Shown: positions 7,128 to 59,299 of the stretch, one piece after another
Layout of the letters: each line of letters opens with the position of its first letter
Numbering within the stretch: the first letter of the stretch is position 1
Origin: Candidatus Woesebacteria bacterium GW2011_GWB1_33_38
Lineage (GTDB): Bacteria; Patescibacteriota; Microgenomatia; UBA8517
Length of the DNA: 59,299 nt
Direction of reading: 5' to 3'
Assembly (NCBI GenBank): GCA_000990005.1
Contig: LBPF01000004.1
Location: forward strand, 1-59,299
Translations under genes and position numbers: made by a program
Notes under the pieces: generated by a model
The model's input: the letters and a program-made list of their open reading frames with translations, nothing else
Told to the model about the DNA's origin: nothing
Database searches by the model: none

Positions 7128-7131
7128 CATT

Positions 7132-7213
7132 GGAGGATTGGTAGAACGGTAATACGCGGGTTTCGAAAACCCGTGGGAGTAATCCCAAGTAGGTTCGACT
7201 CCTACATCCTCCG
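7132..7213 (+). tRNA. tRNA-Ser(CGA)
   Basis: GGAGGAT acceptor, anticodon loop TTCGAAA, long variable arm, GTAGGTTCGACTCCTAC T-arm. Confidence 0.8.
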
Positions 7214-7240
7214 CTTTTCTGGTACAATACACGTAAAGTT

Positions 7241-7693
7241 ATGAAAAACAATAACGGTGAAATACTAATTGGTGGGGCAGTTATTTTTAAAGAAGGAAGA
7301 GGAAAAAATCATTTTTTACTTTCAAAAAATAATGAAGGTGAGTGGGAAATATTAAAGTCTACAGTTAGAAGGGGAGAGTCTTCAGTTAGGGCTGTAATTA
7401 GATTTACTTCAGAACAGGGAAATATGAATACTAGAGTTTTAGATGAAGTAGGTAGGGGAACTGGTGCAGGAACAGTTGGAAACAAAAGTGTAACTTTTAA
7501 ATATATTTATTACCTTATGTTGTATAAAACAGGTGCTGAAATAATGGGTATAGGAGAACACGCTTGGTTTGATTATGCTGGAAGCTTAAAGAAACTTAAA
7601 TTAAAAAGAGAAAAAGATATGTTAAAAACAGCAAATGGAATGATTAAAGAATGGGAAAAGAAAAGAAAATCCTCAAAAAGACCAAACTCCTGA
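7241..7693 (+). CDS. NUDIX-like protein (degenerate Nudix box)
   Basis: GGAVIF...GEWEILKSTVRRGESSVRAVIRFTSEQG loosely fits GX5EX7REUXEEXG. Confidence 0.35.
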   Translation: MKNNNGEILIGGAVIFKEGRGKNHFLLSKNNEGEWEILKSTVRRGESSVRAVIRFTSEQGNMNTRVLDEVGRGTGAGTVGNKSVTFKYIYYLMLYKTGAEIMGIGEHAWFDYAGSLKKLKLKREKDMLKTANGMIKEWEKKRKSSKRPNS

Positions 7694-7718
7694 TATAATT
7701 GCCTCAGTCTAATAAAAT

Positions 7719-7734
7719 ATGGAGGAGTCGGATA
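7719..7734 (+). repeat. 16-nt direct repeat: duplicated 5' end of tRNA-Ser(GGA)
   Basis: ATGGAGGAGTCGGATA occurs at 7719-7734 and again at 7782-7797, where it is the start of the intact tRNA. Confidence 0.9.
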
Positions 7735-7783
7735 AGTAAACTTGCAACCCAGTTGTAAGCATAGCTTGTCCTTACCCTCACAT

Positions 7784-7867
7784 GGAGGAGTCGGATAGTG
7801 GTTCATTCCACAGACTTGGAAAGTCTGCGGCTTAACAGCCTCGCGAGTTCGAATCTCGCCTCCTCCG
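7784..7867 (+). tRNA. tRNA-Ser(GGA)
   Basis: GGAGGAG acceptor, anticodon loop TTGGAAA, long variable arm, GCGAGTTCGAATCTCGC T-arm, CTCCTCC G. Confidence 0.85.
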
Positions 7868-9361
7868 CTTTGCAAATAATGAGCGTGTCGCAAAATATGG
7901 CGAGTTTTGCGCACGCTCGGAACAGGCCGTATTGTAGCCCAGTTTGTAATCTGTTTGGAGCGAATTACCTTCTAAAATGAAGTTCGAGCCGACACTTTTT
8001 GCAAAAGAGCGAAGCTCTTCTGCAACTACATTTTTTGCCGCGATTTTTCTAGCCTGAAAGGCTCGCAACATGAAGTTTTCGAAAGGTTCGAGCCAAAGTC
8101 CACCCTTTTCTTTTAGAACAGCGATTTTCTCTGCGATTTTTTGTTTTTCCTCAAAAATCTCATTCTTCTTTAGTTTATAAACTTCGGGGTCAATATCTCC
8201 TGAAATATAACCGTCGGTTAATCTACTAACTTTAAGGTCTTGTAATTTTATTTCGTTTTCAAAATTGTGAGATTTTTGAGAGACAAGTTTTGTCTCTAGC
8301 TTTTTATCTTCCTCAAACCACTTTTTCCAATCACTTTGCCAAGAAGAAGGCAAGGCAACTGCCGAAATTATCCTTTTAATCTCACTTTTGAGATTATCTT
8401 CAGAAATATACTTTTGACTGCACTTACCTAACTTTTTAGTACAACGATAGTAGGTATAGTCAGCACACCTATCAGTACCTTTGTAATATTTATGATGAAT
8501 TTCGGCAGTTATTGCAGCTCCACATTCCGCGCATCTGGCCAGTCCTGTAAAGGCAAACCTGTGTCCATCAGTTCTAGGTTTTTCTATCTTTTTGATTTCA
8601 GATTGAACAGAGTCAAACAATTCTTTGGGTATAAAACACTTATGCGTTCCTTTATACCACTCACCTTTATAGAAAAACTGACCCATATAGAATTTGTTAG
8701 TTAAAGTTCTTCTAATCCTTGTTAAGTCTAAAGGTTTGCCTTTACCTCCAAAAACTTTATTCGAAGCAAGGTATCTTGATATTTTCACAAAAGACTTTTC
8801 ATTTAAGAATAGGGTAAAACAGTTACTCACCAATTTAGATAGCTTTTTATCAATTACTATGTTGTGAGTAACTGGGTGATTTTTATACCCAAATGGAGCT
8901 TTTAGAGGCCAGATGCCCAAGCGCAATTTTTGCCTAATACCTCTTTTTACATTTTCACTTAAATTATCTACATAATATTTTCCTTGGGAAAAGGCGATTG
9001 AAAGCATGAATTTACCTTGTGGGGTATTATCAAACCAAAAAGTGGGGAATTTTAAATCAACTATTTTCCCAATATCTAAAAAGTAGATAATTTTGCCTCC
9101 GTCAACTGAATTTCTAGCAAGTCTATCGGCGTGCCATGACAAAATTGCGTTTGCCTTGCCTTCTTCAATGCTTTTAAGCATTGAATTAAACTTTTCTCTT
9201 CCAGGTTCTTTGGCAGTTTTTGACTCTGTAATAATTTCAGTTACAAAAAGGTTATTGCTCTTGGCAAATTCCTTTAGTTCTGCAACTTGTGACTCAATAG
9301 ACAAAACTTGCTTTGTGGCTTCGTCAGTTGACTTACGGCAGTAGATTATGTATTTGTCCAT
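7832..9361 (-). CDS. large serine recombinase (resolvase catalytic domain + recombinase domain + zinc ribbon)
   Basis: N-terminus YCRKSTDE..SIESQ carries the catalytic Ser region. CxxC...C cluster (ARCAECGAAITAE...YYRCTKK) and a coiled-coil tail. The ORF runs through IR1 into antisense tRNA-Ser(GGA). Confidence 0.85.
   Translation of the reverse strand: MDKYIIYCRKSTDEATKQVLSIESQVAELKEFAKSNNLFVTEIITESKTAKEPGREKFNSMLKSIEEGKANAILSWHADRLARNSVDGGKIIYFLDIGKIVDLKFPTFWFDNTPQGKFMLSIAFSQGKYYVDNLSENVKRGIRQKLRLGIWPLKAPFGYKNHPVTHNIVIDKKLSKLVSNCFTLFLNEKSFVKISRYLASNKVFGGKGKPLDLTRIRRTLTNKFYMGQFFYKGEWYKGTHKCFIPKELFDSVQSEIKKIEKPRTDGHRFAFTGLARCAECGAAITAEIHHKYYKGTDRCADYTYYRCTKKLGKCSQKYISEDNLKSEIKRIISAVALPSSWQSDWKKWFEEDKKLETKLVSQKSHNFENEIKLQDLKVSRLTDGYISGDIDPEVYKLKKNEIFEEKQKIAEKIAVLKEKGGLWLEPFENFMLRAFQARKIAAKNVVAEELRSFAKSVGSNFILEGNSLQTDYKLGYNTACSERAQNSPYFATRSLFAKRRRRDSNSRGC
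7865..7964. repeat. IR1 left copy (100 bp)
   Basis: Reverse complement of 9434..9533 with a single mismatch (7957). Contains an imperfect dyad, 7881-7895/7905-7918. Confidence 0.9.
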
Positions 9362-20368: not shown

Positions 20369-20628
20369 TCCTCGGTAGCTCAACGGCAGAGCAGATTCCT
20401 GTCAAATGGCAGCACTTGATAGTAATATCAGGAGGCAAATCAGGCTAATTCGGGGAACGCCTAATTAGTTTTAGGTCAATCCCGAGCTAAGTCCCCGATT
20501 TAATTGGGGTAAATGTGTAGAGACTATATACCTGACACCAGTTTCTGGTGATGAGATAGTCCAGTCCTTTTGGTAACAAGAGGGGTTCTGTAAGAATAAG
20601 GTTGCACGTTCGAATCGTGCCCGAGGAG
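20369..20628 (+). tRNA. tRNA-Asn(GUU) interrupted by a group I intron
   Basis: The exons join to TCCTCGGTAGCTCAACGGCAGAGCAGATTCCTGT|TAAGAATAAGGTTGCACGTTCGAATCGTGCCCGAGGAG. U1-A72, G73 and the CUGUUAA loop match E. coli tRNA-Asn. Confidence 0.8.
20403..20590 (+). ncRNA. group I intron (IC3-like, ORF-less, 188 nt)
   Basis: P1 pairs CTGT with GCAG, giving U.G at the 5' splice site. The terminal G sits before the 3' exon. P7 is TCAGG/CCTGA. The core GTGTAGAGACTA is identical to the Azoarcus tRNA-Ile intron segment as I recall it. Confidence 0.75.
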
Positions 20629-20636
20629 CAAGGAAT

Positions 20637-21311
20637 TTAATTAAGTACACCAGCCATTAATCCTAATATCTCTCGCTGTGTTTTAGTTGACAAATAAAGT
20701 AATGTGAAAACGCCAAATTTATGTACTTGTTTTCTGATTTTTTTACTCCCAATTTTATTTTTTGCAATATAGCTCTTGTAAATTCTTTTTTCTGGTATCT
20801 TTGTTAAAACAGACCAATATTTTCTTGCCTTCTTTTCATCTAAATTATCATGAATCCAGATTTGACCAGCCATTTTATTAGGAGATATATCATAAAATTC
20901 TATTAGCCAATTAGTCATGAATTTGATTGTATTTGGATCAGAATTAGCAAAGCCAAACCGCTGATCATTTTTCCCACCATCTCCAATATAAAGTCCAATA
21001 CCTGCCATAAATCTATCCCTTTTTGTCAATCGTCCTATTTTTGATTTACCACTTTCAAATAACCGTTTTGTTCTTTCGATACGTTCTTTTTGTTGTTTTT
21101 TTGCTCCAATCATTCTACCTTTTGTTGCCCCGTTCAATTTGTTTTGAACAAGCCTATTGATTTGCTCAGGGGATAAAATAACATCTCTACACCACCTGCT
21201 TAAAGTATCCTTTGAAACCTTAACTCTTTTTTGTATTTCTCCGTAGGACAAGCCGTTAGATCTTAGTTTTTGAGCCAGCTTCTTCTCCTCTAATTTTCCG
21301 TAATAACCCAT
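20637..21311 (-). CDS. HTH + LAGLIDADG-like protein (free-standing homing-endonuclease-like)
   Basis: N-terminal resolvase-type HTH (LSYGEIQKRVKVSKDTLSRWCRDV). Single FMAGIGLYIGDGGK motif. Its stop codon begins 9 nt after the tRNA-Asn 3' end. Confidence 0.5.
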   Translation of the reverse strand: MGYYGKLEEKKLAQKLRSNGLSYGEIQKRVKVSKDTLSRWCRDVILSPEQINRLVQNKLNGATKGRMIGAKKQQKERIERTKRLFESGKSKIGRLTKRDRFMAGIGLYIGDGGKNDQRFGFANSDPNTIKFMTNWLIEFYDISPNKMAGQIWIHDNLDEKKARKYWSVLTKIPEKRIYKSYIAKNKIGSKKIRKQVHKFGVFTLLYLSTKTQREILGLMAGVLN

Positions 21312-44352: not shown

Positions 44353-44662
44353 ATGTTTTCCTTTCCTTTCTGTTTTGTTTCCTTGCCGATATAATCCTTG
44401 TCTTTTTAAATCTTAATGTAAAAATAATAGTTAAATATTTATTTGCATCTGTCTTTCCGTAGGCTACAAATCGAGCTTCATTTAGTGAATGTTTTTTATC
44501 ATCAAACACCCTTAATGGTCTGTTCAAAAACGCTTCTTCACATTCTTCTTTGGTAACCCCATGTTTTAACCAGCTTTTAGTTACATTTCCACTATCCCAT
44601 TCAAAAGCAATGGATGAAATATGTCTTGGCATGATATCACTGTATATGATCATACAATACAT
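44327..44662 (-). CDS. brnT: BrnT-type (DUF497) toxin
   Basis: FEWDSGNVTKSWLKHGVTKEECEEAF. Confidence 0.7.
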   Translation of the reverse strand: MYCMIIYSDIMPRHISSIAFEWDSGNVTKSWLKHGVTKEECEEAFLNRPLRVFDDKKHSLNEARFVAYGKTDANKYLTIIFTLRFKKTRIISARKQNRKERKTYDKKNTKI

Positions 44663-44664
44663 AA

Positions 44665-45213
44665 TTGCAATTTGTCAAGTGCGTATATATCATTTACATG
44701 ATGGATTTAAAACTAGAAAACAAAATTTGGTGGAGTTATATACAGGAAGATTTGCAAGAATTACTTGTAGCCTCTGAATTTTTAGCCAACACTGTTAAAA
44801 GTTGGGGTGGGGACCTGCCTGCGGGAAGCAGAGTATTTCATGATTATTCTTTTGTTGTTTTTCCAACAGCCAAAGCCTATGAAGGTTTTTTAAAGAAGAT
44901 GTTTTTTGACCTGGGTTTTATAACAGAAGAGGATTACAGAGGCAAGAGATTTAGAATTGGTAAGGCCTTAAATCCCTTTTTAGAAAAAAACTTAAGAAAC
45001 AGAGAAAGTGTATATGATAAATTGGTTAAATATTGCAATGGCAAAGAACTGGCAGATAAACTTTGGGAGGCTTGGACTAGTGGCAGAAACCTTATTTTCC
45101 ATTGGTTCCCTGAAGAAAAAAAGGCTGTCAGCTTTAAAGAAGCAGAAGAAAAGATCAATTTGATAATTAATGCTATGGATTTGGCCTTTAGAGGGTGTAT
45201 TATTAATAAATGA
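44665..45213 (+). CDS. hypothetical protein (start uncertain)
   Basis: Long ORF with no motif I recognise. Confidence 0.4.
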   Translation: MQFVKCVYIIYMMDLKLENKIWWSYIQEDLQELLVASEFLANTVKSWGGDLPAGSRVFHDYSFVVFPTAKAYEGFLKKMFFDLGFITEEDYRGKRFRIGKALNPFLEKNLRNRESVYDKLVKYCNGKELADKLWEAWTSGRNLIFHWFPEEKKAVSFKEAEEKINLIINAMDLAFRGCIINK

Positions 45214-45848
45214 AATCATTTAAATATGCCGTAGGTTTTGCAGTTTATCTTCTAATTGTCTGGGGTTTTTATAGATTTTTATTTCAACTACCTGAAACAA
45301 TTGAAGAACTAATTATTAAACCAGTTGTTTGGTTATTACCTGTTTTTTACCTCCTGAAGAAGGAGGAAGAAGGGATTTCCTCTTTAGGAGTTACACTTAA
45401 AAATTTATTCCCAGCAGTTTATTATTCTTTGGGACTTGGTGCATTTTTTGTCATGGAAGCTTTAGTTATTAATTTTGTTAAATATGACGGCAAGTTTGAT
45501 CTGAGAGCAAATATTGGAACTCTTCCACTTTTAACATCCTTAGGTTTATCATTTGCAACTGCAATTTCAGAGGAGCTTGCATTTAGGGGATATGTATTTA
45601 CAAGAATCTGGAAGTTTCTGGGCTCAGAACTTTATTCCAACGTTGTTACAAGTCTTTTCTGGGCCTTAATTCACGTTCCAATTACTATATTTGTGTGGAG
45701 GCTTGATTTTTCTGCAACGTTAATTTATCTATTCTTAACAACTCTTTTTGGTATGGGTAGTGCCTTTGTCTATGCTAGGACAAAAAATATTCTTTCTCCA
45801 ATTCTACTTCATGTTCTCTGGCAATGGCCCATCATACTTTTTAGGTAA
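45210..45848 (+). CDS. CPBP-family intramembrane metalloprotease
   Basis: ISEELAFRGY, WALIHV, ILLHVLWQ motifs. Confidence 0.75.
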   Translation: MKSFKYAVGFAVYLLIVWGFYRFLFQLPETIEELIIKPVVWLLPVFYLLKKEEEGISSLGVTLKNLFPAVYYSLGLGAFFVMEALVINFVKYDGKFDLRANIGTLPLLTSLGLSFATAISEELAFRGYVFTRIWKFLGSELYSNVVTSLFWALIHVPITIFVWRLDFSATLIYLFLTTLFGMGSAFVYARTKNILSPILLHVLWQWPIILFR

Positions 45849-45850
45849 AA

Positions 45851-46054
45851 ATGAAAAAACTTAAATTACATCAATACAATGTAATTTCAAGATTTTGTGA
45901 AGATATAGCTAAAGGACTAATGCTGGCAGTGATTTTAGGACAAATGGCTATAGCAAATCTCACACCTTTAGAAAGAGTGTTGTCAATATTAACATCAATA
46001 GTTTTGGCTTTACTATTATTGTTTTTCGCGATATACTTTTCTAAAGAAAGATAA
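45851..46054 (+). CDS. small membrane protein
   Basis: 67 aa with two TM helices. Confidence 0.4.
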   Translation: MKKLKLHQYNVISRFCEDIAKGLMLAVILGQMAIANLTPLERVLSILTSIVLALLLLFFAIYFSKER

Positions 46055-46062
46055 AAACAATT

Positions 46063-46173
46063 ATGAATAATATTGATTGGGGTGTTGCGTATAATTCAGC
46101 CTTTATTGTAGCTGGTTTTGTAGGAATTCTTTTGGCCTCATTCGCTTTATATACTAAGAAATTTGCAAAATAA
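46063..46173 (+). CDS. 36-aa single-TM peptide (not in ORF track)
   Basis: MNNIDWGVAYNSAFIVAGFVGILLASFALYTKKFAK. Confidence 0.3.
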   Translation: MNNIDWGVAYNSAFIVAGFVGILLASFALYTKKFAK

Positions 46174-46174
46174 T

Positions 46175-46270
46175 ATGAATATTCCGTGGAACGCTCAGAC
46201 ATCAACAATAACCCTAGTAGTAGTTACACTAATTCTTCTGGTTATGGTTTATTTTGTCGCAAAAAAGTAA
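46175..46270 (+). CDS. 31-aa single-TM peptide (not in ORF track)
   Basis: MNIPWNAQTSTITLVVVTLILLVMVYFVAKK. Starts 2 nt after the previous stop. Confidence 0.3.
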   Translation: MNIPWNAQTSTITLVVVTLILLVMVYFVAKK

Positions 46271-46277
46271 TACTTTT

Positions 46278-46760
46278 TTAATTGACTAAATCGTATTTAG
46301 GAACAGGAAATCCTTTCTGTATTGCCTTTTTGGCAATACCAATTGAAGCTTTTCGTACTCTTTCATATTTTTCACCCCAAGCTCTTAATTCAGAATCCAT
46401 GTTTGGCCCTGCAGTATTTTTACCATGTGCAGATAAGCCATTCTTGAGTTGGGTATGGCTTTGAAGTACATCTCTTCGCTCATCTTGTATAAATTTGGAG
46501 AAGGATTTCAACTCCGTTTCAGTAACATCATCTTCGGTGAGCGCCTTCATGTCGGGTTTATTCAAAACCATCCACTCAAATGCCTCATCTTGACCAATTC
46601 CTCGTGAACTTGCAATATTTTTTGTTACTTCATCATCTCTCATCCATGCAAAACGCCTATTGAAAATTATTTCTGCGGCTTCAGGATTAAAATGTTTGGA
46701 TAACAAACCAATAATATTTTCCTCTGCACTTAATTTTGGTTCCCCCCCCACAGCTTCCAT
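46278..46760 (-). CDS. hypothetical protein
   Basis: 160-aa ORF with no recognised motif. Confidence 0.4.
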   Translation of the reverse strand: MEAVGGEPKLSAEENIIGLLSKHFNPEAAEIIFNRRFAWMRDDEVTKNIASSRGIGQDEAFEWMVLNKPDMKALTEDDVTETELKSFSKFIQDERRDVLQSHTQLKNGLSAHGKNTAGPNMDSELRAWGEKYERVRKASIGIAKKAIQKGFPVPKYDLVN

Positions 46761-46826
46761 ACTAGTAATTATACACTATGTTTGCGGGGATTGACTAATT
46801 GATATACAATTACAATTACCCGAAAA

Positions 46827-47435
46827 ATGAAAAGTAGGATTGCAGGAATTAGTACTACAATTTTGACAGCTTTTATCATCCTTCTGGTATCTTTACTAAA
46901 ATGTGTAACTCCTAATTATGCATATTCCCCAATGGTTTTGTCAGAAAAAGCTGTAGACAATAGTCAACTAGATGTCGATTATGATCTACCTTATCAGGGC
47001 AAAATTCTGCCAGATAATCCTTTGTGGTATGTCAAAGTGTTAAGAGATAAAGTTTGGCTAGTCATAACATTCAATTCTTCAAAGAAGGCAGAATTGAATC
47101 TATTGTTTGCAGATAAGCGGTTATCTTCATCTCTTGAGCTTTTTAAAAAGAATAAACCTGACTTAGGATTGTCTGTACTTACCAAATCAGGAAAATATTT
47201 GGAAAAGTCAGCTGGTCTTATGGGAGATGACAAAGATTTTTTAAAGAAACTTTCTCTGTCTTCACTTAAACATAGGGAGATTATAGAAGAAGAAATACTC
47301 TCACTTACTCCAGAAGATTTGAGACCAAAAGTTATAAAGACAGAGGACTACTCGAAGTTAACATATGAAAAGGTGAAAGACAAAATGCTCTCAGTTGGCT
47401 TAGTTCCACCAAATAATCCTTTTGAAACGAAGTAG
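46827..47435 (+). CDS. secreted/anchored hypothetical protein
   Basis: N-terminal hydrophobic segment followed by a helical repeat-like body. Confidence 0.4.
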   Translation: MKSRIAGISTTILTAFIILLVSLLKCVTPNYAYSPMVLSEKAVDNSQLDVDYDLPYQGKILPDNPLWYVKVLRDKVWLVITFNSSKKAELNLLFADKRLSSSLELFKKNKPDLGLSVLTKSGKYLEKSAGLMGDDKDFLKKLSLSSLKHREIIEEEILSLTPEDLRPKVIKTEDYSKLTYEKVKDKMLSVGLVPPNNPFETK

Positions 47436-47591
47436 TTTTTTGTGCAATTTTATTTTTTGATTTCCGCGGAAATTTCCGCGAGCAATTTTTATTTTACTTT
47501 TTCACGCTTAGCTTACGCATAAGCTGATATATTTGGTTCTACAAACTAATAGTTGCTTATCCGTTGTTAGTATTAGATTATCCAATTACTT

Positions 47592-50500
47592 ATGAAAAAT
47601 TACAAAGCTCCTACTTACGAAAAGATAAAAAAAGAAATAACAAAAAAAGTTGGCATGATGCCAGCTAGACCTGCTGATTTACCTCAAGGTGCATGGACAG
47701 AACAAGCTTTAAAAGTTTTGGAAGAAAGATATCTTGTAAAGGATAAAAACTTAAATCCAATTGAGAGTCCTGAAGACATGGTTTGGAGAGTTGCTTATGA
47801 AATCGCCTCATCTGAGGCAAGATGGGGAGCCAACAAAAAAGAAGTTTTAAGGGTAGCTAGAGAGTTCTATGAACTAATGGTTAGTAGAAAGTTTTTACCA
47901 AATTCTCCAACTTTAATGAATGCTGGAACTAATAATGGTTTGCAATATTCTGCCTGTTTTGTTCTCCCTGTTGAAGACTCTATGGAAGGAATTTTTGATG
48001 CTCTAAAATATCAGGCAATAATTCATAAAACTGGTGGGGGAACAGGATTTGCCTTTAGTAGACTTCGTGAAGGTGGATCACTTGTTAAAACCTCATCAGG
48101 AACAGCATCTGGACCAATATCATTTATGAGAATTTTTGATACGGTCACAAATGAGGTCAAACAGGGCGGTAAAAGAAGGGGAGCTAACATGGGAATCTTA
48201 AGAGTAGACCATCCTGATATTTTGGAATTTATCCATTGTAAAGAAGAGGGGGGAATCACTAATTTTAATATATCGGTTGCGATAACAAACGCTTTTATGA
48301 AAGCATATCAAAATGATGAGGAATATGAACTTATTAGTCCTAAGACAAAAGAGGTGGTGGGTAAGCTTTCAGCTAAAAGGGTTTTTAATGAAATTGCCGA
48401 TGGAGCCTGGAGAACTGGGGACCCTGGACTTATTTTTATAGACAAGATAAATGAAAGCACGGCCAATCCAGTACCTACACTTGGTAATATAGAATCCACA
48501 AATCCATGTGTTATTGGGGATACTTTGGTGTCGACAAAAATAGGATTACTTAGAATAAAAGATATTGTAGAGAATGGTAATAAGGGATTATTTTTTGATA
48601 ATAGAGTTAAAAATATAACTAAAAGTGGAGTTTCGATCAGTGAAGCTGTTAAGTTATATGATTTAGGTCCAAAAAAAGTAATGAAATTAGTTACCAAATC
48701 AGGTTATGAAATAACTGCAACTCTAGACCATAGAGTAATGACTGTTAGTGGATGGAAGGAAATCCAATCGTTAAAAATAAATGATGAGATTCTTATACAA
48801 AGTGCCAAAGGTAGTTTTAATGAATCTAATAAGTTATCTTTTGAAACTATCAACAATTTTCCAAATAAGTGGACCAAAGAACTGGGTCAGGTTTTGGGTT
48901 TGTTAATAGGTGATGGCTGGTTACGAAGATAAAAATTGTAGAGTCGGATTTACTTTTAGTGAACAAGATACAGACTTGTTGATACGATTTAAAAATATAA
49001 TTAACAGATGGTATGGAAGAGAAATTAAAGAAGTAAAAAGACCAAGAAATACATACCATCTTTCTTATCATTCTCAGGAGATGGTTGACTTATTTATGAA
49101 CTTTGGAGTGAAATCTGTCATAGCCGAAGAAAAAACTGTTCCCGAATCAATCTTTTCAGCAACTGAGGATGCTGTTGTAGGTTTCTTGCAAGGTTTATTT
49201 TCAGCAGATGGAACTGTTAGAGATAGTAAAAAAAGCAATAGCGATTGGGTTGCTTTAACTTCAAAAAGTGAGAGACTCTTAAAAGATGTACAACTTCTTT
49301 TATTGAATTTAGGAATTAAATCGAGGATATTTGACAGAAGTAGAGATGAAAGGTCGGGAATGTTTCCTTACAAAGACAAGAAGGGAAATATAAAAACTTA
49401 TACAACGGATGGGGTGCTTTATGAATTAGGCATATTTGGTGATTTTAGAGAGAAATTTAAGAATGAGATAGGATTTTTAAATATTGATAAACAAAAACAT
49501 CTTGAAAATACTAGACCAAGAAAAAATAGACGTTTACAGGACCAATTTGTAGATATCGTTGTAGAAATTAAAAATGCCGGTATTCAAAACGTTTACGATG
49601 TTACAGAACCGATTAGTCATTCCATGATTGCAAACGGGCTTGTTGTTCATCAATGTGGTGAACAGCCGCTTTATCCATTTGATGCCTGCAATCTTGGTAG
49701 TATCTTTTTAACTTACTTTGTTAAAGACGGAGACATTCTTTGGGATGAACTAAGGGACGTAACCAGAAAGTCAGTAAGGTTTTTGGATAATGTTATTGAA
49801 GTCAATCCATATCCTCTAGAACAAATAAGAAACACAGTCTTTGCCATAAGAAGGATTGGTCTCGGGATTGGTGGTTGGGCAGATATGCTTCTAGAGTTAG
49901 GTATTCCTTACGATTCCAATGAGGCCTTGGATTTAGCAGAAAAAGTCATGAAGACTATCCAAGAAACTGCTGTTGATGAAACAGAAAAGTTGGCCAAAAT
50001 TAGAGGAGTGTTCCCATTATTTAAAGATTCAATTTACAAAAAAGATAAACCAAGAAGAAATTCAACTGTGACAACAATTGCACCAACAGGGACAATATCA
50101 ATCATTGCGGGGGCATCATCGGGGATAGAACCGTTATTCGCAATAGCTTTTCAACATATTGTTAAGGATAAACACTTGGATAGAAAACTAACATTTGTAA
50201 ACCCCAAATTTGAAGAGGTTTTGAAGTCTCAAAACCTGTGGAGTCAGGAGTTAATGGATAAAGTGGGAGAAAAAGGGGTTGTTAGACATATTGAAGAATT
50301 GCCTCAAAAAATTAGAGATATCTTTGGAACAGCTCATGAAATTGATCCAGAATGGCATATTAAAACTCAAGATGTATTTCAAAAATATACAGAAAATGCG
50401 GTTAGTAAAACTATTAATTTAAGACATGATGTAACCGTTGAAGACATTAAGAATGTTTATTTACAAGCTTGGAATTCCGATTGTAAAGGCATCACAGTTT

Positions 50501-51174
50501 TTAGAGATGGTTGTAAGAATGCACAAGTTTTAAATCTGGGAATTAAGAATGACCTGCCTGCCGGCAGGCAGGAGGAAGTAAAAGAAGAACCCCTAAGACA
50601 TAGACCTTACATGGTTCATGGCTCAACCTATAGAATGAATACACCTGTTGGTACAGCTTTTATAACAATAAATGAAGACAACTTGGGTGAGCCGTTAGAG
50701 GTTTTTATAAACGTAGGTAAGGCAGGGTCAGATGTGGCTGCAATGGCTGAAGCCTTAGGTAGAACTATATCGACGACTTTAAAGTTTAGGGGTGGTATTT
50801 CTGCAAAAGAAAAAGCAAAAGAAATTGCAGAGCAACTATCAGGAATAGGGGGCAGAAGGTCAATTGGATTTGGACCAACTAAAATAAGATCTCTACCAGA
50901 TGCAATAGCAGGTGCTATATCAGTTCATTATAATTTTGGAATTAACGGTTATCATAATAGCCCAAACATCTTTGGAGAAACTCAAAATGGTAAAGTGGAA
51001 ACTGAGGTCGTGGCAACACAACCCCATATTGAAGATAAACCTGTTCAAGAAGGATTGTTTTTGCACGCAACAGTTCAGAAAGCAGGGGACATCTGTCCGT
51101 CTTGTGGAGCCTCAGCACTTGTTTTTGAAGAAGGATGTAGTAAATGCCATGCATGTGGACACTCTGAGTGTTGA
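47592..51174 (+). CDS. nrdJ: class II (B12-dependent) ribonucleotide reductase with intein; reading frame broken by +1 shift near 48921-48927
   Basis: Exteins read ...IESTNP|CGEQPLYPFDACNLGS..., TIAPTGTIS, VSKTINL, plus a C-terminal Cys4 finger. The two track ORFs (47592..48932 and 48910..51174) are offset by +1. Confidence 0.85.
48507..49653 (+). mobile_element. intein with LAGLIDADG endonuclease domain inserted at the TNP|CGE active site
   Basis: Starts CVIGDTLV and ends GLVVHQ|C. LAGLIDADG blocks are LGLLIGDGW and VVGFLQGLFSADGTV. Length 1147 nt equals 3n+1. Confidence 0.8.
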
Positions 51175-51212
51175 GCACACAAGATATTAGGTGATAAGAT
51201 ATAAAGTGAACA

Positions 51213-51584
51213 GTGTTAATACAAAAGTTTACTGATTTGGAAGTTTGGAAGAATTCTCACGAGTTAACTATTTTTATTTATAAAATTACAAAAAGCTTTC
51301 CAAAGGAAGAAGTATTTGGTATTACTTCACAGATTAGACGAGCTTCAGTTTCAATCGAATCTAATATTGCTGAGGGTTTTTCCAGATTTCATTTCAAAGA
51401 TAGACTGAATTTTTATTATCAATCTAGAGGTTCTGCTTCTGAAGTTCAAACACAGTTATTAATAGTAAAAGACCTGAAATATATTTCTGCAGAAGATTTT
51501 AAAAAAGCCTTTGATTTAGCGCAGAAAGTATTGATCATTTTAAGTGGATTAATCAAATCCACAGAAAATATGACAAGAAAATGA
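51213..51584 (+). CDS. four-helix-bundle protein (23S rRNA-IVS protein / Avd-like family)
   Basis: FTDLEVWKNSHELTIFIYKITKSFPKEEVFGITSQIRRASVSIESNIAEGFSR. Confidence 0.75.
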   Translation: MLIQKFTDLEVWKNSHELTIFIYKITKSFPKEEVFGITSQIRRASVSIESNIAEGFSRFHFKDRLNFYYQSRGSASEVQTQLLIVKDLKYISAEDFKKAFDLAQKVLIILSGLIKSTENMTRK

Positions 51585-51627
51585 AACCACTTTATATCTT
51601 AATTACTTTTCACTTTATATCTTTTAT

Positions 51628-52134
51628 ATGACTGTATATACAAAAACAGGGGATAGGGGGCAGACAGGGACTTTTGGTGGAAAGAGAGTTTCAAAATCTT
51701 CGAAACTAATAAATGCAATAGGGGTAATTGATGAACTTAATTCATATCTTGGGATAATTAATACAGGATACAAAGATATAAAGTTAGTAGATATACAGAA
51801 AAATTTATTTACCATAAACGCCATTCTAACAGGGGCAAAGCTCGATTTTTCAAAAGTTGAAACAAAAAAGTTAGAAAAAGAAATAAACTTGATGGAAGGT
51901 CAGATGCCTGTTCTTGCCAACTTCATTATTTATTCAGGAACCTCAAGAGCGGTGAAATTATATTATGCCCGCGCTTTATGTCGTCGTGCTGAACGCTTGC
52001 TGGTTAAATTAAGAATTAAGAATGAAGAATTAAGAATTTTACCGTACATTAACAGGTTATCAGACTATTTATTTACGTTAGCTAGATATACTAACTTTAA
52101 GAAAAAAGTAAAAGAAGAAGTGTGGATGGTTTGA
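51628..52134 (+). CDS. pduO: ATP:cob(I)alamin adenosyltransferase, PduO-type
   Basis: VYTKTGDRGQTGTFGGKRVSKSS N-terminus. Confidence 0.8.
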   Translation: MTVYTKTGDRGQTGTFGGKRVSKSSKLINAIGVIDELNSYLGIINTGYKDIKLVDIQKNLFTINAILTGAKLDFSKVETKKLEKEINLMEGQMPVLANFIIYSGTSRAVKLYYARALCRRAERLLVKLRIKNEELRILPYINRLSDYLFTLARYTNFKKKVKEEVWMV

Positions 52135-52174
52135 TATTATGTATTGACAAAGTATGTACTGATATAATAAAATT

Positions 52175-52477
52175 ATGGTGTTTAAATTTAAGTACAATGT
52201 AAGTTTTGATAGCGATAAAAATACATTACTTAAAGAAACAAGGGGAATGTCTTTTGAGGATTTGTTAGACCTTGTCTACAATGGAAAGGTTTTAGACAAT
52301 ATAGAACATAATAATCTTAAAAAACATCCAAATCAGAGCGTTTTAATTATTAAAACAACTGGTTATGTATATGCGATGCCATATGTAATAGATGATAAAA
52401 AGAAAATGATATTTTTAAAAACAGCTTATCCAAGCCATAATTTAACAAAAAAATATGCAAAAAATAATACTGGATAA
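52175..52477 (+). CDS. BrnT-like toxin (tentative)
   Basis: FDSDKNTLLKETRGMSFEDL resembles the DUF497 core. Overlaps the downstream antitoxin-like gene. Confidence 0.45.
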   Translation: MVFKFKYNVSFDSDKNTLLKETRGMSFEDLLDLVYNGKVLDNIEHNNLKKHPNQSVLIIKTTGYVYAMPYVIDDKKKMIFLKTAYPSHNLTKKYAKNNTG

Positions 52478-52745
52478 ATACGAGCAGGAAATAGAAGACG
52501 CCATCGCAAACGGCGAATATTCTTCTGTCCCAAAAACAGAATTTAAAAAGACTAAAAAAATATTTGAAGAAGCAGCAAAAAACTACTTTGAAATAAAAAA
52601 GAGTAAAAGTATAACCTTAAGAGTTAAAAATGAAGATTTAATAACTGTTAAGTCAAAAGCAAGGGGAGTTGGTATTCCATATCAAAGAATTATTAATATG
52701 CTTATAAATGGCTATGCAAACGATAGAATAAAACTAGCCATTTAA
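52455..52745 (+). CDS. BrnA/CopG-like antitoxin
   Basis: ITLRVKNEDLITVKSKARGVGIPYQRIINMLI. Confidence 0.55.
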   Translation: MQKIILDKYEQEIEDAIANGEYSSVPKTEFKKTKKIFEEAAKNYFEIKKSKSITLRVKNEDLITVKSKARGVGIPYQRIINMLINGYANDRIKLAI

Positions 52746-52749
52746 AAAT

Positions 52750-53229
52750 ATGAATTTAACTAAAAAACAAATAGAAACCCTTAAAAAGTTAATGATAAAT
52801 TCTGCCAAAAAAGGAAATTTAGCAAATTCGGGTATGGTCATTGGGGGGGGCAGGATAATTGCGACTTCAGAAAGTTTGGTCGTTACTAATCATAATGCCA
52901 CTGATCATTCTGAAAGAATGCTGGTTGAAAAAGTATGTAAGAAATATCAAAGTCATTACACTCCAGATTTAACAATGGTTACTGTTTGTCAACCCTGCTT
53001 GATGTGTTTATCAGCTTGTTCCCAAGCTGGTTATAATAAAATAGCATATATAATTCCTGCCCAAAAATATGTAGATAAAATTCCATGGATGTCTGATAAC
53101 ACTAAAATCAATGTGGGCAAAACAGCAAAAACAATGACTGACCCAATTGAATTTGTTCAATTGCCCCAATATGAGACAGAATTTTCAAAAGTTTTTGAAA
53201 AAGTAATGATCCATCACTTAACTAAATAA
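52750..53229 (+). CDS. cytidine/deoxycytidylate-deaminase-fold protein
   Basis: HSE...(x)...PCLMCLSAC, a variant of the HAE/PCxxC zinc motifs. Confidence 0.55.
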   Translation: MNLTKKQIETLKKLMINSAKKGNLANSGMVIGGGRIIATSESLVVTNHNATDHSERMLVEKVCKKYQSHYTPDLTMVTVCQPCLMCLSACSQAGYNKIAYIIPAQKYVDKIPWMSDNTKINVGKTAKTMTDPIEFVQLPQYETEFSKVFEKVMIHHLTK

Positions 53230-53313
53230 GCTTCTTTTGTGCCAATATTAATTCATGGGACTACTGTCGAAAACTCTATTGACAAGATGTACACTAGGAG
53301 ATATTATATAAAT

Positions 53314-53574
53314 ATGCAAACAATGATATTTTCGGCTACAAAAGCAAGGAATCAATTTTTTGATATCTTGACATGGGTTTCTATGGGTAAAACTATAATG
53401 ATAGAAAAAGACAAAGAATTAATTGCAAACATTTCACCTATTTTTAAAGTAAACAAGAATAAAGGTTTGTTAAAATCTTTAGATTTAGCTTCTGTTGGCT
53501 TTGAATATTCTAAGGAAGATAATCCATTAAGAAAAAAAGGTGCGTCTAATTTTTTGGGTAGATGGGACAAATGA
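53314..53574 (+). CDS. Phd/YefM-type antitoxin
   Basis: MQTMIFSATKARNQFFDIL. TTGACA(53278)-N17-TATTAT-6 nt-ATG. Confidence 0.6.
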   Translation: MQTMIFSATKARNQFFDILTWVSMGKTIMIEKDKELIANISPIFKVNKNKGLLKSLDLASVGFEYSKEDNPLRKKGASNFLGRWDK

Positions 53575-53954
53575 ATTATATATTTGATACCAATATTATT
53601 ATTGATGCTTTAAGACAAAATAAAAAAGCTAGGCAGTTATTCGTAGATTTTGATGGAGCTTTAGATAATCTATTTATATCTTCAATAACTGCTTTTGAAT
53701 TATTTTCAGGCAAAAGCTCAAAAGACACAACACAAAGTGAGAGAATAACCAAATTACTATCACATTTTACAGAAATTGATTTGAATTGGAAAATATCTAA
53801 ACTTGCTGGAGAAATTTATAGGGATAAGGTAAAAGGGTTAGAAGTACCAGATTACATTATCGCCGCAACTGCTATGGAAATAGGAGCACAAGTTGTAACT
53901 TTAAATAAAAAGCACTTCACTCAAATTCCAAACTTGATGATTTATCAATTATGA
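53562..53954 (+). CDS. vapC: PIN-domain toxin (VapC-like)
   Basis: YIFDTNIIIDAL...IAATAME..VVTLNKKHF. Confidence 0.7.
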   Translation: MGQMNYIFDTNIIIDALRQNKKARQLFVDFDGALDNLFISSITAFELFSGKSSKDTTQSERITKLLSHFTEIDLNWKISKLAGEIYRDKVKGLEVPDYIIAATAMEIGAQVVTLNKKHFTQIPNLMIYQL

Positions 53955-54304
53955 AATTTATAACAAAAAAACAGTCCAAAGAATTTAAAAACAGTGAAAC
54001 CTGTATTGCTATCGAATATCCAATCGATGATAAAGATATAAATATTGCAGTTATTAAACTCAAAAACGATCGTTACCCTGCAAAAGGGTGGGCTATCAAT
54101 GAAAAGTGCAAAGAAATGTCATATATTGTTAGGGGTAGAGTAGAACTTGTAACTGAAAATGAAAGTGTCGAACTGCAAGAAGGAGACGTTGCGTTTATAG
54201 AAGTAAATGAGAAATATTATTGGTTTGGGGATTGTGAAATGGTGATGCCTTGTACTCCAGCATGGTACCCAGAACAACACAAAATTATTGAGGCTTCATT
54301 GTGA
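53951..54304 (+). CDS. cupin-domain protein
   Basis: About 117 aa, beta-rich, GDVAFIEVNEKYYW cupin-like strand pattern. Confidence 0.45.
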   Translation: MKFITKKQSKEFKNSETCIAIEYPIDDKDINIAVIKLKNDRYPAKGWAINEKCKEMSYIVRGRVELVTENESVELQEGDVAFIEVNEKYYWFGDCEMVMPCTPAWYPEQHKIIEASL

Positions 54305-54316
54305 TATTATTAATTC

Positions 54317-54646
54317 ATGGGACTACTGCCTGAAAGGGAACCTGCTAAAAATAAGTATGAGAATATTGACGAAGCTTCTACCTTAAACATTGAAAGGAAA
54401 GAGGTAATTACTCCTGTCCCCACTCAATTTAAAGCCAAAGTTACAGATGATAAGGGAAATAAACTTGTTGAGTCCGTGGATGACAAAAGATTTATAATTA
54501 AAATTCCTCAATTTAGTCGTGAACAAATGGAAAAAGACATTAAAGATGGAGATAAAGAAGATAGTAAAATATGGTCAATTGCATATTGGTTAAGATTATT
54601 TAAAAAAGCATTATTTTTTGGTTGGAAGGCGGTGTTTGACAGATGA
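54317..54646 (+). CDS. hypothetical protein coupled to the downstream ATPase
   Basis: ATGA overlap with 54643. Confidence 0.4.
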   Translation: MGLLPEREPAKNKYENIDEASTLNIERKEVITPVPTQFKAKVTDDKGNKLVESVDDKRFIIKIPQFSREQMEKDIKDGDKEDSKIWSIAYWLRLFKKALFFGWKAVFDR

Positions 54647-56970
54647 TTATTCCTGACATAAATACAATAATTGCATTTTTAGTTTTAATCATAATTTTAA
54701 CCCTTTTCTTTATTGTGATTGGCTATGTTTTATTTATAGTTTTTCGTTTCAGGGGTAGAGAAGAAAAATCTGTCGACTCGGTATATTTACAAGTTTCAGT
54801 TCCTAGATTAAATGAAATAAAAACTGATGCCATGGAGCAATTATTTGCATCCCTATATTCAATTAAAAAAGGAGGCTGGAAACAAAAGTTTTCAGTTCAA
54901 CCAATAATTTCTTTTGAAATTGTAGCTCGGGCTGAAGATATCAAATTTTACGTTTGGACCCCTACGAATTATAAAGATTTAATTGAAAAATCAATCCATG
55001 GAGCATATCCTGATGCTGAGATAAAAGAGGTTCAGGAAATAAATATTTTTACAGAAGATGGTAAGGTTTGTTATAAATCTCTGCAACTATCTAAAGCTGA
55101 TTTTTATCCTTTAAAAACATTTAAAGATCTACCAACTGATATTTTAGCCTCTTTAACTTCATCCCTTGCTCGAATGAATAAGGATGAAGCATCAGCAATT
55201 CAAATTTTAATTTCTCCTGCCGAATCGGAATGGCAAAAAATCGGAAGTAAATTTATATCAGAGACTAAAAAACAAGAAAGTAGTAGCGAATCAGCTAAAT
55301 ATTCAGTTTCTTCAAAACAATTAGAAGCAGTTGAAAATAAAATTAGTAAAGCAGGCTTTGAGACTTCAATTAGAATTGTGACAACAGCGCCCACTAAAGA
55401 GGCTGCCAAGGTTCATCTTGATAATATTGCCTCAGCGCTTGGTCAAACAGCAGGGGAATATAATAATTTAGGTAGTAGAAAAATTTACAACAAAGGTGGT
55501 TTCATGCAAGATTTTCTGTATCGTTATCAGCCGATGTTTCATGTGTTTAAAAACCATGTAACTATTTTAAATACAGAAGAATTAGCAACACTCTTTCATT
55601 TTCCAAATCGTCAAATAACAACTCCACACATTCATTGGTTGCATAGTAAAACAGCTCCAGCCCCCGCCGAAATTCCTGAAGATGGATTATATATTGGCAA
55701 AAGTGTTTATAGAGGAGTGGAAAGGAAAATTGCAATTGGAGATGATGATAGACGTCGTCACGTTTACATCATTGGAGCAACTGGAACTGGCAAAACAGAA
55801 TTATTAAAAAGCATGATTATGCAGGATATTAATGAGGGAAAAGGTGTTTGTTTTATGGATCCACATGGTGATGCGGTAGAGGATATATTAAAATTAATTC
55901 CTCCCGAGAGGGCTGAGGATGTAATTTATTTTAGACCTTCAGATACTGATCGCCCAATGGGATTAAATCTAATGGAAGCCTCGACTGAAGATGAAAAACA
56001 TTTTGTGGCTTCATCAATTATCAATATGATGTATAAACTTTTTGACCCCTATAAAACAGGTATTGTTGGACCTCGTTTTGAACATGCTGTTAGAAACGCG
56101 ATGCTTACAATTATGTGTGAGAAAGGTTCAACCTTCGTTGAATTAATGAGGGCTTTAACTGATGCTAGATATGTTCAGGAACTTCTCCCTAAAGTAACTG
56201 ACCCAATTATTAGAAGATATTGGACTGATCAAATTGCACAAACTAGCGATTTTCACAAATCAGAAGTTTTGGATTATATCACTTCCAAATTTGGCCGTTT
56301 TGTTACCAATAAGATGATTAGGAATATCATTGGCCAATCCGTTTCTTCATTCTCCTTTAGAGACGTAATGGATAATGGGAAAATACTACTTATTAATCTG
56401 GCCAAAGGTGAGTTGGGCGAGGAAAACTCAAACTTTTTAGGACTTATATTAGTACCTAGGATATTAATGGCTGCTATGAGTAGATCTGATACCCCAGAGG
56501 AAAAAAGACGCGACTTTTATTTATATGTAGATGAATTCCAAAATTTTGCCACTCCTGACTTTGCTGTAATTTTATCAGAGGCTAGAAAATATAAATTAAA
56601 CCTTACTGTTGCCAATCAATTTATTGGTCAAATGGAGGAAGAGGTTAAAAATGCTGTTTTTGGAAATGTAGGTACAAAAATATCATTTAGGGTTGGTGTA
56701 ACTGACGCTAATTATCTTCAGCATGAATTTACCCCGACCTTTGGTGAAGATGATCTATTAAATGTCGAAAGATTTCATGCCTATGTTAAAACAATAGTCA
56801 AAAATCAACCACAAACTCCATTTTCCCTTGATACGACTATGGATATGGATAAAATTAACGCAATAAAAAATGAGAGAACAGCAGAAATAATTAAAGAAAT
56901 GAGTAGATTAAAACATGGTAGAGATATGAAACTTGTAGAAGCAGAAATCACAAGAAGAGCAAAGCTCTAG
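54643..56970 (+). CDS. membrane-anchored TraD/VirD4-like (coupling-protein-type) P-loop ATPase
   Basis: N-terminal TM helix. Walker A GATGTGKT. Walker B region FYLYVDEFQNF. SEARKYKLNLTVANQ. Confidence 0.65.
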   Translation: MIIPDINTIIAFLVLIIILTLFFIVIGYVLFIVFRFRGREEKSVDSVYLQVSVPRLNEIKTDAMEQLFASLYSIKKGGWKQKFSVQPIISFEIVARAEDIKFYVWTPTNYKDLIEKSIHGAYPDAEIKEVQEINIFTEDGKVCYKSLQLSKADFYPLKTFKDLPTDILASLTSSLARMNKDEASAIQILISPAESEWQKIGSKFISETKKQESSSESAKYSVSSKQLEAVENKISKAGFETSIRIVTTAPTKEAAKVHLDNIASALGQTAGEYNNLGSRKIYNKGGFMQDFLYRYQPMFHVFKNHVTILNTEELATLFHFPNRQITTPHIHWLHSKTAPAPAEIPEDGLYIGKSVYRGVERKIAIGDDDRRRHVYIIGATGTGKTELLKSMIMQDINEGKGVCFMDPHGDAVEDILKLIPPERAEDVIYFRPSDTDRPMGLNLMEASTEDEKHFVASSIINMMYKLFDPYKTGIVGPRFEHAVRNAMLTIMCEKGSTFVELMRALTDARYVQELLPKVTDPIIRRYWTDQIAQTSDFHKSEVLDYITSKFGRFVTNKMIRNIIGQSVSSFSFRDVMDNGKILLINLAKGELGEENSNFLGLILVPRILMAAMSRSDTPEEKRRDFYLYVDEFQNFATPDFAVILSEARKYKLNLTVANQFIGQMEEEVKNAVFGNVGTKISFRVGVTDANYLQHEFTPTFGEDDLLNVERFHAYVKTIVKNQPQTPFSLDTTMDMDKINAIKNERTAEIIKEMSRLKHGRDMKLVEAEITRRAKL

Positions 56971-57060
56971 GCATAAGATATAAAGTAATTAGATATAAAG
57001 TCCGAAAGTGAGTGTTGTTTTCTATCACTTAATATCTTAATATCTTATCACTTAATATCT

Positions 57061-57921
57061 ATGCATAAAGTTGGAATAATTGGTTGGGGATTTGTGGGGG
57101 AGGCAACTGGTACCGGATTTGCAAAAAGTAGACAAAACAAAGTTTTTTGGTTTGATAAATTTAAAAAGTCTCCAAATACTTTTGATGAAGTAATAGAAAA
57201 ATCCGATTACATATTTATTTGTGTTCCCACCCCAATGTTTAGAAATTACTCAGGAATGGATATGAGTATAGTTGAGGGGGTTTTGGATTTAATTGTTCCA
57301 AAAGTTTCAGGAGCGAAGAAAATTGTAATTATTAAATCAACTTCACTTCCAGGGACAACAGCAAAATATGCTAAAAAATACCCTTCAGTTAACTTTGCAA
57401 TGAATCCTGAATTTCTAACACAAAATAAGGCTAAAGAAGACTTTTTAAATCCCGCAAGAACCGTAATAGGGGTCAAGAATAAGGAATTGGGAATTAGGAT
57501 TCAGGAATTATATAAAACCATACTACCCAAAGACCAAAAGTACTTCATTACAGGACTAACTGAGGCAGAAATAATCAAATATATGAGCAATTTAATGCTT
57601 GCCAGTAAAGTACTTCTAGCCAATGAGTTTTATATGCTTGCAGAAGATATAGGAGCGAATTACAAGGAAATATACCCTGCAGTTCAAGCAGATCCAAGAA
57701 TAGGGACACACTTGTCTGTTCCTGGTCCAGATGGTGACCTTGGATTTGGTGGAGCCTGTTTTCCAAAAGATATATTAGGACTACTTTCTTTTGCAACCCA
57801 AAAGAAAATTGATATGAGTGCATTGTCTGGTATTTGGAAGAAAAATTTAAAAATTAGAAAAGTAAAAGACTGGGAACATATGGATAATGCCTTTGGTCGC
57901 GGAGCTTCTTTAAAAAAGTGA
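57061..57921 (+). CDS. UDP-glucose/GDP-mannose dehydrogenase family protein (short form)
   Basis: IGWGFVGEATG Rossmann motif and catalytic GGACFPKD. Confidence 0.7.
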   Translation: MHKVGIIGWGFVGEATGTGFAKSRQNKVFWFDKFKKSPNTFDEVIEKSDYIFICVPTPMFRNYSGMDMSIVEGVLDLIVPKVSGAKKIVIIKSTSLPGTTAKYAKKYPSVNFAMNPEFLTQNKAKEDFLNPARTVIGVKNKELGIRIQELYKTILPKDQKYFITGLTEAEIIKYMSNLMLASKVLLANEFYMLAEDIGANYKEIYPAVQADPRIGTHLSVPGPDGDLGFGGACFPKDILGLLSFATQKKIDMSALSGIWKKNLKIRKVKDWEHMDNAFGRGASLKK

Positions 57922-57986
57922 ATAGTTAATGAGATTCAGCTTCGCTATAGATACAAAGTGATTAGATTGCTATAATATGCCTCATT

Positions 57987-58029
57987 GGGCCTGTCGTTCA
58001 ACGGTTAGGATGGATTTCTTATGACAAAT
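57987..58029 (+). repeat. 5' half (about 43 nt) of a diverged tRNA-Ile(UAU)-like gene
   Basis: GGGCCTGTCGTTCAACGGTTAGGATGG...CTTATGA aligns with the first 43 nt of the adjacent intact tRNA. A TATAAT box sits at 57971-57976. Confidence 0.6.
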
Positions 58030-58100
58030 GGGTGTGTCGTTCATCGGTAGGACGGTACTCTTATAAAGTATCAAGGATGGTTCGACTCCATCCACACCCA
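58030..58100 (+). tRNA. tRNA-Ile(UAU)
   Basis: GGGTGTG acceptor, D stem GTTC/GGAC, anticodon stem GTACT/AGTAT, loop CTTATAA, T-arm GATGGTTCGACTCCATC. Confidence 0.75.
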
Positions 58101-59198
58101 CAGAAATGGATTTTCCGGCGAGTCGGGAATGGCGCTCGCCGCGCCCGCCCCCGTGGCGAGCGCTGCAAAGCCCAGTTTATATACGCAAAAAAGCCGCCGA
58201 TTAGAAACAAGGTAGTCCGAGCCGACTTTTTTGGCGAAGAATGATAATTCTTCGCCATTATGTTTCGCGCGCGCGATTTTGGCCGCATCAGCGGCCACTT
58301 CTACAAATTCCCTCATTAGTCCGAGCCATTCACTTCCGTTTTTGGAAACACTTGCCATTTTCTCCTTCAATCTGATTTTTAGTTCCATTAATTCGTTTTT
58401 CTTTTGTTGATAGACTTGGGGATCAACTATCTGGTCGAGATAGCCTTCAAGTAACCGATCAAGTTTTTTGTCTATTTCTTGAACTTCGGAAGAAAATTTT
58501 GTAACTTGATTTTCACTATTTGTTTTTTCTTCCGTTTCCTCTTTATCAAGTCTTTCTATCCACAGTTTAGTCCACGAAGTGGGCAGGCTGGCTTTTTCAA
58601 CAATTGCTCGCAATTGTTGCTCTAAAAGTTCTTCCCGCAGATAATTTTGTGAACAATCGGTTTTCTTTTTGGTACAGCGATAGTAGATGTAATCCACATT
58701 TCCCCTCGTTGTTGGATAGCATTTGTGTTTGACTTCGGCGGTGATGGCACAGCCACATTTAGCGCACTTGGCCAATCCCAGAAAAGCAAAGTTGTGCTTT
58801 TTGTTTTTAGGATGTTCTCTTGCCTCGAGAATTTTCTGAATTTTTCCAAACAACTCTGGGGGAATAAACAGTTTATGAGTCCCTTCGTAGGTTTCACCTC
58901 CGAAGTTGATTATGCCAACGTAAAACTTGTTGCTTATAATCCTCTTTACCGTATCAAGGTGAAGCATTTTACCGTTGTATCTGGTAATGCCAAACTTTTG
59001 AAAAAATCGAGAAATGTTAGCAATAGAGCTTTCGCCTTCGGCGAAAAGCTCAAATGCTTTTTTGACGATTTTTGATTTTACCGGATCAATTTCGATTGTT
59101 CGTAATCTCGGCTCGTTGAAATATCCGTACGGCGCTTTATTAGGTAAAATTCCTTTTCGCAGTTTTTGCCGATTGCCTCGTTTTACATTTTCGGACAA
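58071..59198 (-). pseudogene. 5'-truncated large serine recombinase (lacks catalytic domain)
   Basis: Homologous to residues ~134-end of 7832..9361 (LSENVKRGNRQKL..., CAKCGCAITAE, YYRCTKK). An in-frame TAA lies just upstream of the homology. The 3' end runs antisense into tRNA-Ile. Confidence 0.7.
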
Positions 59199-59299
59199 AT
59201 TCAGGACTTACGCATTTTGACAAACTATAAGTTGGTGGTTTAAACTTTGTGGTAAGAATGGTGGTGATATAAAAAGTGGGGATAAAATGCAATAAAGAG

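Follow-up and report, generated by a model that had tools for sequence, protein, structure and literature searches.

The break in the reading frame of the intein-bearing nrdJ gene of the groundwater bacterium Candidatus Woesebacteria bacterium GW2011_GWB1_33_38 is almost certainly the seam of two draft contigs that were laid end to end with five nucleotides, ATGGT, missing between them, nrdJ itself being intact in the organism. The seam falls between positions 48927 and 48928 of the window, by which we mean the whole 59,299-nt stretch of DNA that was analysed, at the first LAGLIDADG motif of the intein, where the absence of ATGGT would mimic a +1 frameshift.

The original prediction had described an intein at 48507–49653 with a length of 1147 nt (3n+1), and a re-reading of the window letters bears out both the span and the length. 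The N-terminal half of a ribonucleotide reductase (RNR) is specified by an ORF at 47592..48932, which runs on into the intein and has LGLLIGDGWLRR as its last residues; it is closed by the TAA at 48930–48932, which is indeed where the upstream frame had been said to end. The ORF at 48910..51174, in the +1 frame, reads MMAGYEDKNCRVGFTF and onward GYEDKNCRVGFTF; it encodes, in this order, the LAGLIDADG domain, the residues ANGLVVHQ up to 49653, and the CGEQPLYPF of the RNR barrel. Because a TAG at 48907–48909 closes the downstream frame and the TAA at 48930–48932 closes the upstream one, the shift is confined to 48910–48929. The narrower interval predicted earlier (48921–48927) is essentially right, although the letters alone allow all of 48910–48929, or 48918–48929 if the GDG of the motif is kept. 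Neither stretch contains a homopolymer in the window letters.

The first 48,927 positions of the window are the entire NCBI contig LBPB01000006.1 (48,927 nt, assembly GCA_000989865.1), and it is because this contig ends at base 48,927 that we place the seam at 48927|48928. A 445-aa protein that ends in GDGWLR (P0012) is encoded at 47592–48927 of LBPB01000006.1, up to its final base and with the same coordinates as in the window, and a further sequence, L001, is letter-for-letter identical to window 44592–48927. We infer from the size of this first contig that a second piece, 48928–59299, was appended to it. A database record exactly matching the right-hand partial product (window 48928–51174) was sought and none was found.

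The missing nucleotides are present in contigs from other sources. Logan contigs of public runs, which are assembled contigs and not raw reads, were aligned to window 48300–49900; they come from groundwater or soil runs, and six of these runs show ATGGT at the seam (X1, X3, X7, X8, X9 and X12). The contig depth that continues from 48927 into ATGGT amounts to 17.7 of 17.7 in X1 and 56.9 of 56.9 in X3, which is full depth in both, 10.1 of 14.5 in X7 and 6.52 of 11.6 in X8; X1, X3 and X7 are three groundwater runs. The rest of the depth in X7 and X8 is due to another, related intein (GGTTGGTTAATTGGAGATGGATGGTTAAGA), which has no more than about 33 nt in common with the window. In X9 and X12, the contig ends at 48927 and its loose ends continue ATGGTGAT(AAAAATT). 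A simulated-metagenome run, X5, has no coverage at the seam and hence supplies no positive control for the deposited form.

Six longer contigs (L002–L007) were reached through the neighbouring cobalamin adenosyltransferase gene at 51628–52134. In all five of those that span the seam flanks (L002–L006, from five independent ENA/JGI metagenome assemblies of several samples) exactly ATGGT lies between them. L003, which derives from a 70.6-kb contig, has no mismatch to the window over 12,507 nt, and L006 has none over 11,030 nt, the sole difference in either comparison being one 5-nt gap. The sixth contig, L007, starts 17 nt upstream of the seam, which indicates that other assemblers also tend to break there. 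The cause of the break is probably that strain variants and a second related intein share a conserved LAGLIDADG-encoding stretch, which would tangle the assembly graph. The second intein, with the motif GWLIGDGWLR, is seen in X7, X8, X9 and X12 at window 48925–48957, the shared stretch of about 33 nt reaching across the seam.

With ATGGT in place, nrdJ is a single 1195-aa ORF; the earlier remark that the only RNR of the window, as written, cannot be translated through holds for the window letters and not for the organism. On L003–L006, gene calling yields a single RNR gene of 1195 aa, and on L002 one of 1199 aa; the repaired translation does not differ from the 1195-aa ORF of L003 and L006. 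On each of L002–L006, the gene displays the domain string Ribonuc_red_lgN, Ribonuc_red_lgC, Intein_splicing, LAGLIDADG_3, Ribonuc_red_lgC, TSCPD. The N-extein (47592..48506, + strand) carries the Pfam domains Ribonuc_red_lgN and Ribonuc_red_lgC and ends in NIESTNP; the C-extein (49654..51174, + strand) starts with the Cys+1 of NPCGE and carries Ribonuc_red_lgC, the TSCPD domain and a C-terminal Cys-rich, zinc-ribbon-like tail. Removal of the intein regenerates the NPCGE active-site motif and gives an 811-aa product that matches NCBIfam NF006417, an equivalog model of vitamin B12-dependent ribonucleotide reductase, at 1015 bits (cutoff 961) in one stretch over residues 32–811, and that also scores above the cutoff for TIGR02504 NrdJ_Z. 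By these profiles and the NPCGE motif, the gene encodes NrdJ, a ribonucleotide reductase of class II (AdoCbl-dependent).

A Logan contig with the intein-less nrdJ of another organism (NGWEVESTNP|CGEQPLYPFDACNLGS) has its point of divergence from the window precisely at 49653|49654. As the spliced product matches NF006417 from end to end and the intein-less allele joins at the same point, the intein boundaries and the TNP|CGE insertion site are right, in agreement with the original prediction. This intein-less gene (ESTNP|CGEQ) was seen in runs X1, X3 and X6 at window 49654–49685.

A sequencing or assembly indel, a recent inactivating mutation and recoding had been named earlier as possible explanations of the break. 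An assembly artefact it is, but not a 1-nt indel inside a contig: five nucleotides are gone at a seam. The stretch 48915–48935, for which Logan contigs were inspected in place of reads, likewise has its ORF restored by ATGGT and not by one nucleotide. Inactivation and recoding are both contradicted by the continuous 1195-aa ORF across five assemblies and the contigs from six runs. A real and recent 5-nt deletion in the sequenced population that makes nrdJ a pseudogene has the window letters as given in its favour, and because Logan contigs drop rare variants, absence from them is no proof and a rare deleted subpopulation could exist. Such a deletion would, however, have to coincide exactly with the final base of a 48,927-nt contig, and the deleted form occurs in no contig of the six runs or five assemblies, including L003 and L006, which are otherwise 100% identical to the window. 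Furthermore, it would strike the sole RNR gene in the window, next to a cofactor gene that is intact. We consider such a deletion very improbable.

Programmed +1 ribosomal frameshifting at TTA CGA AGA TAA would carry ribosomes through the intein, and the Arg codons CGA AGA directly before the stop superficially resemble a hungry-codon +1 site. Genomic DNA of the same strain (L003 and L006) is nevertheless in frame at this position, leaving nothing to recode, and the +1 product (WL.EDKNC) would lack the conserved R[SN]G, which is present once ATGGT is restored. The probability of frameshifting here is negligible, and the candidate recoding site was rejected, as contigs of identical sequence carry ATGGT and a single ORF. 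Hardly any weight can be given either to a naturally fractured gene, in which a split intein would be made from two overlapping, trans-splicing ORFs broken at the endonuclease insertion point. The start codons GTG 48910 and ATG 48913 do adjoin an AGGTG-like stretch, and naturally occurring RNR genes that are split or fractured and contain split inteins have been reported (PMC2677866). The same DNA is, however, a single ORF elsewhere, and the break falls within a LAGLIDADG helix and not at a domain boundary; the numerous short homologues are contig-end partials, from a list that holds no protein longer than 699 aa. The naturally split intein was rejected as a candidate on finding one undivided gene on L003–L006 (1195 aa) and on L002 (1199 aa).

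Read across the contig seam with ATGGT restored, the intein (48507..49653 in the window, + strand) is 1152 nt and 384 aa long and consists of a Hint splicing domain in which a LAGLIDADG homing endonuclease is nested. The repaired first motif reads GDGWLRNGDKNCRVGFTF (in the longer stretch, LGLLIGDGWLRNGDKNCRVGFTFSEQD), in agreement with the homologue consensus LGWL[IV]GDGWLR[SN]GDKNCRVGFTF and with individual homologues such as P0082, in which it is identical, and P0002. The repaired intein matches Pfam Intein_splicing at 51.1 bits (cutoff 35.8, residues 15–383), LAGLIDADG_3 at 77.7 bits (cutoff 22.5, intein residues 224–324) and NCBIfam TIGR01445 intein_Nterm at 45.9 bits (cutoff 24.5), and falls just under the cutoff of 25 for LAGLIDADG_2 with 23.8 bits. 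A search of solved structures returned only distant inteins (DnaB mini-inteins, PI-PkoII and PI-PfuI).

The elements of the splicing domain can be assigned along the + strand. Cys1 is the TGT at 48507–48509, directly after STNP. The block B TxxH motif (TLDH, 48720..48731) aligns to block B of the DnaB mini-intein. Blocks F and G (VYDVTEPISHSMIANGLVVHQ, 49591..49653) include the penultimate His and the C-terminal Gln; the junction is encoded by CAT CAA (His-Gln) at 49648–49653, followed by TGT GGT GAA (C-G-E) from 49654. The Asp and His of block F, the penultimate His383 and Cys+1 are all present. Considering (i) the seamless host protein left upon removal and (ii) the presence of Cys1 and block B, the element is predicted to be a class 1 intein. 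Its block G departs from the class 1 pattern in having Gln in place of the terminal Asn, an accepted variant that does not exclude it from the class. The first LAGLIDADG motif, LGLLIGDGW (48894..48920), is directly upstream of the seam, and the second, VGFLQGLFSADGT (49177..49215), includes FLQGLFSADGT. Both keep the Asp that serves as the catalytic acidic residue, and the two motifs together with the profile match identify the nested element as a putative double-motif LAGLIDADG homing endonuclease.

The C-terminal junction VVHQ|C, to which the original prediction had drawn attention, reads as it had been described: the CAA at 49651–49653 is unchanged in all strains and assemblies seen. No run carries a variant at these three positions, and co-occurring strains differ at 49638, 49639, 49665 and 49668. 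The L002 strain, 97% identical, also keeps HQ|C, and HSMIANGLVVHQ|CGEQ is found in L002–L006 and in distant homologues.

With the repaired intein as query, 116 homologous database proteins were retrieved, almost all of which are RNR fragments that carry an intein at NP|C, the best being about 46–61% identical to the window intein. No protein in this list exceeds 699 aa, although identical products of 1195 aa exist on L003–L006; long proteins thus seem to be unreachable by the search, and truncated or partial ORFs are over-represented. At the 71 homologous junctions, the residue preceding CGE is Asn in 43, Gln in 22 and Asp in 6. The comparison with orthologous inteins thereby leaves the Gln terminus standing, as a residue shared with homologues at NP|CGE. 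Asn is the commonest terminal residue at these junctions, but Gln, noted earlier as standing where nearly all inteins have Asn, is no rarity in this family.

A crude neighbour-joining tree, built from the last 150 residues of the inteins, places the window intein in a clade made up of Gln-enders only (P0043, P0003, P0029, P0037, P0046, P0015 and P0018), which are 52–60% identical to it. A second small group of Gln-enders is placed among the Asn-enders, and the Asp-enders form a clade of their own. Block G of the main Gln clade mostly reads HSM(I/V)...HQ, as against HSF(I/V)...[HS]N in most Asn-enders. As the Gln is retained across a clade of 52–60% identity, it appears to be a working residue and not a lesion. 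This conservation argues that Gln is a trait of the intein lineage, belonging to an already known class of functional variants.

The allelic class II RNR inteins at NP|CGE share the insertion site and the Hint plus LAGLIDADG layout with the window intein; the majority of them end in Asn (43/71), whereas the window intein belongs to a Gln-ending sub-lineage. The window intein aligns to profile positions 937–1240 of NCBIfam NF006207, a model of intein-containing B12-dependent RNRs, which we take to represent the Pyrococcus type. Amitai, Dassa and Pietrokovski, whose 2004 paper is cited in PMC4031507, are said to have described an Asp-ending RNR intein of Carboxydothermus hydrogenoformans. That intein tolerates a non-Asn terminus too, but the residue is Asp instead of the Gln of the window intein, and the Asp-enders at NP|CGE (n = 6) branch separately from the window intein in our crude tree.

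Inteins that end in Gln or Asp follow the standard pathway, with the Gln or Asp cyclising in step 3 (PMC4031507); for Gln, the cyclisation product is an aminoglutarimide (PMC8175363; PMC4031507). The RNR intein of Chilo iridescent virus (CIV) splices more efficiently with its native Gln than with Asn (PMC4031507). It shares the terminal Gln with the window intein, but its host is a eukaryotic virus. Splicing with the native Gln is slow in the Pab PolII and Mma PolII inteins (PMC4031507). In these PolII inteins, of Pyrococcus abyssi/P. horikoshii and Methanoculleus marisnigri, Gln cyclises to aminoglutarimide, as we propose here; unlike the window intein, they are mini-inteins that have no endonuclease and reside in DNA polymerase, and replacement of their Gln with Asn improves splicing.

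Combining these findings with the class 1 pathway, we propose the following model. The uninterrupted 1195-codon nrdJ gene encodes a precursor that carries the 384-aa intein between the Pro and Cys of NPCGE. Splicing would begin with an N-S acyl shift by Cys1, followed by attack of Cys+1 and trans-thioesterification to a branched thioester. Gln384 would then cyclise to aminoglutarimide with the assistance of the penultimate His and the block F His, releasing the intein, and an S-N shift would finally join the exteins by a peptide bond to yield the 811-aa NrdJ. An Asn at the end of an intein would cyclise to succinimide in the third of these steps. That the Gln-ending intein splices is suggested by the conservation of the Gln clade at 52–60% identity. 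Cys+1 is the NPCGE cysteine, which we take from textbook knowledge to carry the RNR thiyl radical, and so no active enzyme would exist before splicing is complete. The nested endonuclease probably homes into intein-less NP|CGE alleles of nrdJ; the samples that contain the intein also hold an nrdJ of another organism in which this site is empty.

Downstream of nrdJ, at 51213–52134 on the + strand, a 23S_rRNA_IVP four-helix-bundle protein is followed by the ATP:cob(I)alamin adenosyltransferase (51628..52134, + strand; Pfam Cob_adeno_trans, 148 bits), which supplies the AdoCbl cofactor for NrdJ. The gene order downstream of nrdJ is conserved in six other contigs (L002–L007). Farther downstream, 52175–59299 of the window and L002–L007 contain small toxin-antitoxin-like genes (CopG-like, PIN), a cytidine/dCMP deaminase-family protein and a 775-aa TraG/TrwB-like ATPase, which is two ORFs on L005 and L007. 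Beyond the ATPase lie a tRNA-Ile(TAT) at 58030–58101 and then a serine recombinase on the minus strand. The block 52175–59299 looks like an integrated mobile element adjoining a tRNA.

Elsewhere in the window, a group I intron (Rfam RF00028, 76.8 bits, 20391–20583) is found in the anticodon loop of a tRNA at 20369–20629 (+ strand), the acceptor, D-arm and T-arm halves of which are readable on both sides. In its intron mode, ARAGORN reports a tRNA with a 186-nt intron and calls it Gln-CUG, whereas splice sites placed by the U...G rule would make it Asn-GUU. The adjoining ORF at 20637–21311 (− strand) has only weak HTH matches. A tmRNA gene is located at 3230–3611 (− strand; Rfam RF00023, 121 bits), and several tRNA-Ser and tRNA-Arg genes at 5247–7868.

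Since the window combines two pieces and does not represent a single molecule, every feature crossing 48927|48928 is suspect as an artefact. The active-site NrdJ intein, with its LAGLIDADG endonuclease and C-terminal Gln, adds one more case to a known minority class, and the survey of 43 Asn, 22 Gln and 6 Asp termini at one insertion site provides a small dataset on inteins abandoning Asn. It is conceivable, although we think it unlikely, that the fixed Gln and Asp lineages at NP|CGE reflect site-specific tuning of cyclisation, for instance towards slower or conditional maturation of RNR. If this were true, the intein would be a post-translational regulator of RNR and not a neutral parasite, with the catalytic Cys doubling as the +1 nucleophile. 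The main value of the finding is one of caution: the only RNR visible in this organism is, almost certainly, intact and not broken.
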